NCBI GenBank assembly: GCA_045863395.1
Contig: BTVJ01000074.1
Coordinates: 1 to 35,580 of the forward strand
Length of the DNA stretch: 35,580 bases
Direction of reading: 5' to 3'
DNA from: Myxococcales bacterium
Lineage (GTDB): Bacteria > Myxococcota_A > UBA9042 > JABWCM01 > BTVJ01
A program made the translations under genes and the position numbers. Shown in pieces: positions 15,236 to 17,311 of the stretch (position 1 is its first letter; every line of letters starts with the position of its first letter). Under the pieces are notes generated by a model. That model had not been told where the DNA came from. It saw only the letters and a list, made by a program, of their open reading frames with translations, and ran no database searches.

Positions 15236-16030
15236 TCAGCTCCCCGGCGCCAGCCGGAACATGCGGTCCGGCAGGCGCTCGACTTCGTGCTCGACGATAC
15301 GGAGCAGCGCCTGGCCCTCGTGCTGGAGCGCGATGAGCGCGCCCAGGATCAGGAGCCCGAGGCCGATGCCGAACAGGTTCACCGAGGGCACGACGCGCGA
15401 GATGAAGCCGATGGAGATGTTGAGCAGCAGGGTCACCGTGAGCACCGGCGCCGCGAGCAGGATGGCAGTCCGGACGAGATCGTCGCCGACGCCCACCAAG
15501 GTGTTCAGGCTCGGGAGCTCCAGGGAGAGGCTGCCCACGGGCAGCCCCCGCAGGTGCTTGGCGAGGGCGCCGATGACCACGTGGTGGCCGTCCAGCGTGA
15601 CGAACATCAGCGCCGCCACCAAGGAGAGCAGGGCACCCAGCGACAGGGAGTTCTCGCCGGAGACCGGGTCGACCATGTTGCTCATGCCGAGGCCCATGGT
15701 CATGCTCGCCGTGGCGCCGGCGGCGCTGGCGGTGGCGATGATCAGGTGGACGGCGAAGCCGAGGCCGAAGCCCAGGATGGCCTCCCGCCCCACCATCATG
15801 CCGAGGGTGAAGGGGTCGTCCGGCACGGGCACCGCGACACCCCCCAGGGCCAGGTCGAGGATCGCGGAGAGCACCACTGCCAGGATCACGCGGATGCGGA
15901 GCGGCACTTCACGCTCCCCGAAGGCCGGCACGAAGGACACCATCACCACGAGGCGCACGAGGATCAGCGCGCCTCCGAGCAGCCAGGGCGCCAGCAGATC
16001 GCCGAGCGCGTTGTCGATGACGGCGCCCAC
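15236..16030 (-). CDS. fliR: Flagellar export gate protein FliR
   Basis: Polytopic membrane protein with PAFGEREVPLRIR, LDGHH and GFISRVVPSVNLF; lies between fliQ and flhB. Confidence 0.93.
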   Translation of the reverse strand: MGAVIDNALGDLLAPWLLGGALILVRLVVMVSFVPAFGEREVPLRIRVILAVVLSAILDLALGGVAVPVPDDPFTLGMMVGREAILGFGLGFAVHLIIATASAAGATASMTMGLGMSNMVDPVSGENSLSLGALLSLVAALMFVTLDGHHVVIGALAKHLRGLPVGSLSLELPSLNTLVGVGDDLVRTAILLAAPVLTVTLLLNISIGFISRVVPSVNLFGIGLGLLILGALIALQHEGQALLRIVEHEVERLPDRMFRLAPGS

Positions 16031-16033
16031 GGC

Positions 16034-16312
16034 TCAGAAGCCTCCCCGGGCGACCATGCGCACGTTGTCCATCACCTCGTTGATGAACAGGAAGAGGCGG
16101 TCGTTGATCCACGGCCCGGCGAACCACAGGACCAGGCCCACGACGACCATCTTGGGGATGAAGACCAGCGTGACCTCCTGAATCTGGGTCGCCGCCTGCA
16201 GGATGCTGACCAGCAGGCCCACGGTCAGGCCCGCGATGAGCGGCGGCGCGCTCACCGCGATGACGGTGAGGATCGCGTGCTCGAGCAGCGTGCCGACCTG
16301 TTCCGGGGTCAC
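16034..16312 (-). CDS. fliQ: Flagellar export gate protein FliQ
   Basis: VGLLVSILQAATQIQEVTLVFIPK; GTG at 16312 after GGGAGG. Confidence 0.95.
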   Translation of the reverse strand: MTPEQVGTLLEHAILTVIAVSAPPLIAGLTVGLLVSILQAATQIQEVTLVFIPKMVVVGLVLWFAGPWINDRLFLFINEVMDNVRMVARGGF

Positions 16313-16323
16313 GGCGTCCTCCC

Positions 16324-16501
16324 GGAGGGTGTAGCCACGATGGTCCGTCGCGAGCACGTGGGCGCGCCCGCATGGCAAGGAGCAGGTCTCCCGACGAGGG
16401 GGCGCGTACTGGTGGTACTCGCCTCTTCGGCGGGAGGACTGCGACGCAGCCAGGCGGGATGCGACCGCGTGTGTAGCAGGACCATTGTGGCTACACCCTC
16501 C
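16324..16501. repeat. 178-nt imperfect palindrome (long rod-like hairpin) filling most of the fliP-fliQ spacer
   Basis: Three nested stems: 16324-16346/16479-16501, 16354-16376/16449-16472 and 16382-16409/16415-16442, closed by loop TGGTG at 16410-16414. Confidence 0.9.
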
Positions 16502-17311
16502 TTACACGACCCGGACGAAGCTCTCCGCGAGGCTGCGGACCACGAGGCCCCAGCCGTCGGCGAGCACGAACACGAACAGCTTGAGCGGCAGCGCCACGAT
16601 CATCGGCGGCAGCATCATCATGCCCATGGACATGAGGATGCTCGCCACGACCATGTCGATGACCAGGAACGGCAGGAAGAGCAGGGCGCCCATCTGGAAC
16701 GCCGCCTGGAGCTCGCTGAGCATGAACGCCGGGATGATCGCCAGCGTGGAGACGTCCGCCGCCGTCTTTGGGCGCGGCGCCTCCATGATACCCAGGAACA
16801 GCTCCAGATCCTTCTCTCGCGTCTGCCGCAACATGAAGGTGCGGAGGGGCTCGATGGCCGCCGTCAGCGCCTCCCGCTCGTTGAGCTCCCCCGCCTCGTA
16901 GGGGGCGACCGCCCGCTCCTGGATGGCGCTCCACACCGGCGCCATCGTGAAGAACGTCAGGAACAGGGCGAGGCCGACCACCACCCGGTTCGGCGGGAGC
17001 TGCGGGACGCCCACCGCCTGGCGTAGCAGGGACAGGACGATGACGATGCGGGTGAAGGACGTGGCGCTCAGGATGAGGGTCGGCGCGAAGGTCAGCCCCG
17101 CCAGGAGCAGGATCACCTTGATGGCGGCGACGTAGCCCCCATCCTCCCCCACCTCCAGGTCCAAGGAGAAGCGCGGCTGCTGGGCCAGGGCCGTCGCGGA
17201 GACCAGGATCACGACGAGGGCGAGCAGCGTGAGACCTGCCGCGCGAACCCAGCGGCGCGAGCGCGCGGGAGGGCAGGGCACGGCGCCGCTCTGTGTACGC
17301 ACTTGCCACAC
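16502..17311 (-). CDS. fliP: Flagellar export gate protein FliP
   Basis: TSFTRIVIVLSLLRQA, PPN, PAFMLSEL, MGMMMLPP and LPLKLFVFVLADGW. Confidence 0.96.
   Translation of the reverse strand: MWQVRTQSGAVPCPPARSRRWVRAAGLTLLALVVILVSATALAQQPRFSLDLEVGEDGGYVAAIKVILLLAGLTFAPTLILSATSFTRIVIVLSLLRQAVGVPQLPPNRVVVGLALFLTFFTMAPVWSAIQERAVAPYEAGELNEREALTAAIEPLRTFMLRQTREKDLELFLGIMEAPRPKTAADVSTLAIIPAFMLSELQAAFQMGALLFLPFLVIDMVVASILMSMGMMMLPPMIVALPLKLFVFVLADGWGLVVRSLAESFVRVV

Follow-up and report, generated by a model that had tools for sequence, protein, structure and literature searches.

The hairpin that separates fliP from fliQ is most likely a MITE, one of the scattered copies of a noncoding palindrome bounded by terminal inverted repeats (TIRs), which a DDE transposase acting in trans inserted at or next to the fliP TAA stop codon; we assign this reading a probability of about 85%. 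The window, meaning the whole 35,580-nt stretch of DNA that was analyzed, comes from an 8.77-Mb assembly of 186 contigs with a GC content of 70.9% (here called the own genome). We found the hairpin where the original prediction had placed it, between the fliP stop codon and the fliQ Shine-Dalgarno sequence, with the sequence and coordinates as described. The fliP-fliQ spacer is 189 nt long and is made up of this 178-nt palindrome and 11 additional nucleotides. For the element, the plus strand denotes the better-folding, or "top," strand; the bottom strand is the one carried by the fli mRNA. The features of the locus are as follows.

16324..16501, plus strand: the hairpin, a probable MITE copy of an older "GCCA" subfamily, an imperfect palindrome over its whole length of 178 nt
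16324..16346, plus strand: left TIR, GGAGGGTGTAGCCACGATGGTCC, which pairs with 16479-16501 and includes a single G.T pair
16479..16501, plus strand: right TIR, GGACCATTGTGGCTACACCCTCC
16502..16504, minus strand: fliP stop codon TAA (TTA on the plus strand), which abuts the element directly
16502..17311, minus strand: fliP (Pfam FliP, PF00813, E value of 2.7e-76)
16313..16323, minus strand: 11-nt remnant spacer, GGGAGGACGCC, which holds the fliQ Shine-Dalgarno sequence just outside the hairpin base
16317-16323, minus strand: fliQ Shine-Dalgarno sequence, GGGAGGA
16034..16312, minus strand: fliQ, with a GTG start at 16312 (Pfam Bac_export_3, PF01313, E value of 9.4e-26) and an N terminus that aligns with the starts of relatives
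15236-16030, minus strand: fliR (Bac_export_1, E value of 3.2e-49)
16309..16485, minus strand: 58-codon open reading frame (ORF), with an AUG at 16485 that lies in the TIR, 13 nt past the fliP stop, and a UGA that overlaps the fliQ GUG (GUGA)

A BLAST search of the own genome revealed eight full-length copies of the element, counting the fliP-fliQ copy (on contigs C74 [fliP-fliQ], C36, C32, C19, C3, C10, C164, and C28), and at least seven partial or diverged copies (C120, C103, C47, C63, C90, C71, and C27), three of which lie at contig ends. The original prediction had named such a search as the means of telling a MITE from a noncoding RNA (ncRNA), and the result favors a MITE. All full-length and partial copies are on different contigs. 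The other seven full-length copies are 83 to 86% identical to the fliP-fliQ copy; C36, C32, and C19 are identical to one another, and the remaining four match these three at 89 to 99%. An inverted-repeat scan of the same genome added a piece at a contig start (C167), two solo ends (C12 and C7), and a 57-nt mini copy (C94). The elements are 176 to 178 nt long and contain no transposase gene, and the ORFs that cross the fliP-fliQ copy have no Pfam family.

Several copies have surroundings of their own. At C27:15180-15227, a 48-nt fragment of the 5' end of the element is fused to unrelated sequence upstream of a GNAT-like ORF, and this junction recurs, as a loose end, in an RNA-library contig (run X5). 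A contig from another RNA library (run X17) runs from the flank of the C3 copy into the start of the element, which may mean that this copy is transcribed or else that the library contains DNA. By a crude gene caller, the gene to the left of the C120 copy apparently stops at a TAG composed of the "TA" of the duplication and the first G of the element (C120:19380-19382), and the stop codon of a gene beside the C63 copy is 4 nt from the element.

The ends of the family are 22-nt (22- to 23-nt) TIRs that start with GAGGGTGTA, with TACACCCTC at the opposite end, and the ends of the young copies are GAGGGTGTATTCAAAATGGCCC and its reverse complement. These TIRs are perfect in the young copies C19, C32, and C36 and contain one G.T pair in the fliP-fliQ copy. 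We found an identical trinucleotide on both sides of five of the six young full-length copies, either TAA (C36, C19, and C10) or TTA (C32 and C3), while the sixth, C164, is flanked by TCA and TCG. The TAA and TTA flanks are direct repeats, not inverted ones, and because both trinucleotides are rare in a 71%-GC genome, we take them to be target-site duplications. The original prediction had seen no target-site duplication; this is correct at the fliP-fliQ copy, whose flanks are CCC or CCG on the left and TTA or CTT on the right, but it is untrue of the family. The duplication is also absent around C28 and other copies of the older subfamily. In this subfamily, represented by the fliP-fliQ copy and C28, the ends (GGAGGGTGTAGCCA...) depart from those of the young copies at several positions along each arm, and the differences are compensated, with both bases replaced in 8 of the 23 outer pairs. 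These compensated changes indicate that most of the divergence of the fliP-fliQ copy arose while its lineage evolved as a unit and not by decay in place. We also observed the sequence CTTG directly outside GAGGG at three left ends (C12:107649-107674, C94:3589-3652, and C28:56969-57154) and at the right end of C47; this flank of older copies could reflect a different target, a longer TIR, or decay.

Folding of both strands of the fliP-fliQ copy as RNA yielded -137.9 kcal/mol and 72 pairs for the plus strand (z score of -13.8) and -111.3 kcal/mol for the minus strand, which has the sense of the mRNA (z score of -9.8), with none of 200 shuffled sequences as good in either case. The proposal that the fold is favored on the strand antisense to the fli mRNA was thus borne out, and folding as DNA is polarized in the same direction (-72.6 for the plus strand versus -58.8 for the minus strand). 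The earlier division of the rod into three stems (about 23, 23, and 28 bp) simplifies it fairly; there are several bulges of 1 to 5 nt, and the apical loop that was said to be 5 nt long has 3 nt in the minimum-energy fold and reaches 5 nt only if the closing U.G pair is not counted. As had been stated, the outer 23-nt arms differ by one base, which corresponds to the G.T pair at 16/163. The plus-strand fold has the expected seven G.U (G-T) pairs, compared to one in the minus-strand fold; the accompanying claim that A-C pairs are absent was nearly right, as there is one.

A scan for exact 19-mer matches, covering one genome per species, uncovered a sister family with the same architecture. It consists of four 177-nt elements (L053, L056, L062, and L063) in a single 3.5-Mb, 59%-GC genome (G107, identical to G084), which belongs to another family of the same class according to a genome search. 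They have the 19-nt ends, length, and TAA/TTA duplications (in three of the four copies) of the family in the own genome, as well as a left-end motif, ATGGC..TCGCGAG, that occurs in both; the interior is different. The sister elements keep the same rod fold, with bulges at matching places and z scores of -7.9 for the top strand and -6.1 for the bottom strand. Between the two families, 16 of 48 consensus pairs are changed on both sides and still paired, and the same is true within the own genome for 10 of the 75 pairs that make up the consensus structure; the pair counts exclude the diverged copies C103, C47, and C63, whose left ends are truncated or unalignable. The changes on both sides of pairs across families show that the whole-length palindrome is a maintained property of the lineage.

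The distribution of these elements is narrow in the collections that we searched. A young copy used as the query had no match by BLAST (E value of 1e-5) in the 106 other genomes of the class (107 including the own genome), and the structured end-to-end pattern was found in 2 of 401 genomes in a sample of the phylum, the second being the sister-family genome, in which only the ends are shared. The 19-mer scan of the genome collection identified 11 loci. The sister MITEs account for four of them, and we took the remaining seven, none of which has an inverted partner within 2.5 kb, as chance or coding matches. The corresponding scan of metagenome contigs identified four loci, none of which is an element, and a distant-mode search of a plasmid collection returned only two chance matches (E value of 0.5). 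The family was not found in the literature that we searched, although this search was not aimed at proving its absence from print.

We also compared the fliP-fliQ junction with that of other bacteria. From 40 relatives considered, all of them from other families, 15 matched and 8 junctions were read. The distance from the fliP stop to the fliQ start is -4 to +10 nt in all eight (a 3-nt gap in five cases, gaps of 4 and 10 nt in one case each, and a 4-nt ATGA overlap in one), compared to 189 nt here, a difference of about 180 to 190 nt, in agreement with the earlier statement that the two genes are normally almost contiguous. When the element is removed, the junction becomes TAA-GGGAGGACGCC-GTG, with an 11-nt spacer that is similar to the 10-nt spacer of one relative (G028). 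An insertion at or beside the TAA stop, the target of the family, would account for this junction, a fit that stays short of strict empty-site proof. The filled site is present without differences in DNA contigs from two further studies, one represented by runs X6 (15938-17100) and X12 (16316-16628) and the other by run X16 (16115-16456 and 16453-16706), and across eight public sequencing runs we found no contig that skips just the element. Four joints that skip 168 to 396 nt have sides of 21 to 35 nt with less than 95% likeness, some of them at high depth, and were taken as fliP or fliQ of other organisms or as repeats. The contigs of runs X11 and X15 leave parts of the element uncovered and are uninformative on the insertion. 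The intact fliQ and fliR frames, together with the stable presence of the element in several samples, suggest that the insertion is tolerated.

A transposase with matching ends, which the original prediction had proposed to look for, was not found in the own genome. A TIR scan that allowed up to five mismatches detected no TIR pair at the distance expected of an IS in this genome, which also has no match to DDE_Tnp_4, DUF4096, DDE_Tnp_1_2, or DDE_3 (PF13359, PF13340, PF13586, and PF13358). Its sole DDE_Tnp_1 (PF01609) locus, on C148, is unrelated and its ends do not match. A truncated IS5-like fragment at a contig start of the sister genome G107 likewise has no matching end, and a tblastn search of the own genome with this fragment returned nothing. 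An autonomous element with the same ends was found neither in the own genome nor in the sister genome, the 19-mer scans of genomes and metagenomes, or the plasmids. Orphan MITEs are common, so a missing autonomous IS does not exclude membership in this class. According to a published description, the IS1031 group of the IS5 family inserts at TNA and generates exclusively a 3-bp repeat (PMC12016507). From the 3-bp T-N-A duplication alone, a hallmark of this group, we infer that an IS5-family enzyme of the IS1031-like kind is likely to have mobilized the element in trans. Members of the group such as ISLrh resemble the fliP-fliQ element in the TNA insertion site, the 3-bp repeat, and a TIR that begins with GA... 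and has TGT at positions 6 to 8; they differ in that the likeness of the TIRs is otherwise weak (that of ISLrh is given as GAACCTGTCTAGTATCT) and in that the fliP-fliQ element has no associated transposase gene (PMC12016507). The target of the family studied here also differs from that of the IS1031 group in being restricted to TAA and TTA. A target restricted in this way also recalls PIF/Harbinger.

A different kind of mobility, in which a single-stranded DNA element is moved by a Y1 (HUH) transposase as in IS200/IS605 PATEs or REP/RAYT systems, would explain a strand-specific fold, including its polarity as DNA, and a Y1_Tnp protein is encoded in both carrier genomes (C117:9878-10201 in the own genome and C28:3938-4267 in G107). 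However, the Y1 loci have no likeness to the element or its ends in either genome, the fliP-fliQ hairpin is far longer than REPs, and the family has long TIRs and target duplications, while Y1 elements, to our knowledge, have neither. We consider movement by a Y1 enzyme extremely improbable.

The strand polarity of the fold extends to the other copies. The top strand folds better in all eight full-length copies, by 12 to 27 kcal/mol, and in all four sister copies, by 10 to 18 kcal/mol. Four or five G.U pairs on the top strand are common to the whole family, compared to one on the bottom strand. The sister elements have nearly equal numbers of G.U pairs on the two strands (4 to 6 versus 3 to 5). 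Among the one-sided stem changes in the fliP-fliQ lineage, five produced a top-strand G.U pair and none an A.C pair, and this lineage also has two fully compensated pairs and two broken pairs. In a crude simulation that placed eight random transitions on a perfected hairpin, the observed gap between top and bottom strands was reached in 1 of 300 runs. The polarity exceeds this simple neutral expectation, and a purely DNA-level transposon leaves it unaccounted for. We rejected local GC skew as the cause, since there is almost no skew around the element and copies of identical sequence occur in both orientations.

These properties bear on the proposal that the hairpin is a structured RNA gene in its own right, with transcription from the plus strand, antisense to the fli operon, and with the G.U-rich fold as its functional product. 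Such a gene would account for a plus strand that folds 26.6 kcal/mol better than the minus strand with seven G.U pairs versus one, for one-sided stem changes that all keep plus-strand pairing, and for a gap that neutral simulations rarely reach. However, every copy has the same polarity, identical young copies occur in both genome orientations, and the top strand is antisense to neighboring genes in five cases and sense in three to five (by a crude GC3-based gene caller). Because the polarity is found in all copies whatever their orientation, it implies nothing specific about an antisense fli transcript. A consensus scan of 16000-16900 found no promoter-like and no terminator-like sites on either strand, and no terminator-like U run follows the stem. 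An Rfam scan of 16000-16800 that kept matches with E values up to 10 gave none better than 0.13 and no family at or above its gathering score; all matches were far below it, the best being a plant microRNA (miRNA) model (22.1 bits compared to a gathering score of 77.5) and the rest eukaryotic miRNA, snoRNA, and SRP noise. The TIRs and target duplications, in addition, mark a transposon. Thus, among the readings in the original prediction, that of a MITE gained from the dispersed copies, the TIRs, and the TAA/TTA duplications, while a dedicated ncRNA gene is not supported and is very unlikely. The polarity is real, but it is a trait of the element lineage and not of the fli locus, with only moderate support beyond the fliP-fliQ copy. 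Selection on a single-stranded form is one possible cause; others are a leftover from the leader of the parent IS and chance.

The element has parallels among described MITEs, for which long, very stable stem-loops at the RNA level are described as a classic feature (PMC3184786; PMC10969869). The closest of these is Chunjie of Geobacter uraniireducens Rf4 (Chen et al. 2008), which is 178 to 235 bp long, has a folding energy of about -98 to -130 kcal/mol, and, like the family described here, has TIRs of about 21 bp, a stable hairpin over its whole length, and dispersed intergenic copies, many of them partial and one reported to be inserted in an operon (PMC3184786; PMC10969869). In contrast to the G+C-rich fliP-fliQ element with its A+T-rich ends and the 3-bp TAA/TTA duplication of its family, Chunjie is A+T-rich with 9-bp direct repeats; the two have no sequence likeness, and their host lineages differ. 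Correia elements (CREE/NEMIS) of Neisseria and ERIC/IRU elements of enterobacteria are likewise small palindromic MITEs that are cotranscribed with their neighbors (PMC10969869; PMC2649163). They differ from the fliP-fliQ family in duplicating TA and in being 104 to 157 bp or 127 bp long, and they carry IHF sites or promoters.

Taken as a MITE, the fliP-fliQ element would be a non-autonomous DNA transposon, mobilized in trans by a DDE enzyme, that landed at or beside the fliP TAA. It would be cotranscribed in the fliP-fliQ-fliR mRNA as a minus-strand hairpin of -111 kcal/mol, which is the weaker strand but still very stable. The insertion is probably tolerated because the stem ends just short of the fliQ Shine-Dalgarno sequence and start codon; when the element is folded within its mRNA context, GGGAGG, the first six bases of that Shine-Dalgarno sequence, are unpaired with a probability of 0.70 to 0.94. 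Ribosomes that end at fliP, or that read open frames across the element, could melt the hairpin and reinitiate at fliQ. The fliP TAA is in frame with the fliQ GTG, from which it is separated by 63 sense codons (16309-16504, minus strand), and the 58-codon ORF, which has no Pfam family, is a possible translational bridge that may also be due to chance. By rough arithmetic, the chance expectation of such a bridging ORF is about 0.1, and all three frames are largely open across the GC-rich palindrome; since open frames of this kind are often expected in GC-rich DNA and the ORF has no family, we regard the bridge as a possibility and not as a finding. If the insertion changes the FliP:FliQ ratio or the processing or stability of the mRNA, it would do so as a side effect, by analogy with Correia and ERIC elements.

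It is also conceivable, though we think it unlikely, that the MITE has been exapted, either as a site for RNase III or RNase E that affects mRNA processing or stability or, through the 58-codon ORF, as a bridge that sets the FliP:FliQ translation ratio. The position of the hairpin exactly between the fliP stop and the fliQ Shine-Dalgarno sequence, which is mostly unpaired in the mRNA-context fold, would suit such a role, as would the AUG-started ORF that crosses the element and stops on the fliQ start codon. RNA-library contigs (X5, X9, and X17) extend into the element from fliQ and from fliP, and the unchanged insertion in DNA contigs of the two other studies means that it is stably kept. There is precedent as well, in that the RNA hairpins of Correia elements are substrates cut by RNase III and those of ERIC elements unmask RNase E sites and alter mRNA decay (PMC10969869; PMC2649163), and similar effects on the fliP-fliQ element are possible by analogy. 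However, the RNA-library data consist of contigs, so they show no strand, ends, or level and may derive from DNA; the bridging ORF has the chance expectation given above and no family; and the insertion is in none of the relatives examined. An extension of the same idea holds that the MITE lineage itself was selected as a one-strand fold, propagated or kept through an RNA or single-stranded DNA hairpin form despite its DDE-style ends, and that the fliP-fliQ copy was retained because it serves the export-gate operon as a module for processing or translational coupling; this we rate as quite improbable.

The identification of the fliP-fliQ hairpin as a probable MITE copy removes a false lead, as the hairpin in this flagellar operon is most likely a mobile repeat rather than a regulatory RNA devoted to flagella. 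It points to an undescribed family of MITEs with TAA/TTA duplications in two uncultured myxobacterium-like genomes, one copy of which is tolerated between genes that are kept almost contiguous in relatives. The strand polarity is the only feature of this hairpin family that goes beyond the routine, and if it proves to result from selection across the lineage, it would bear on how palindromic MITEs propagate.
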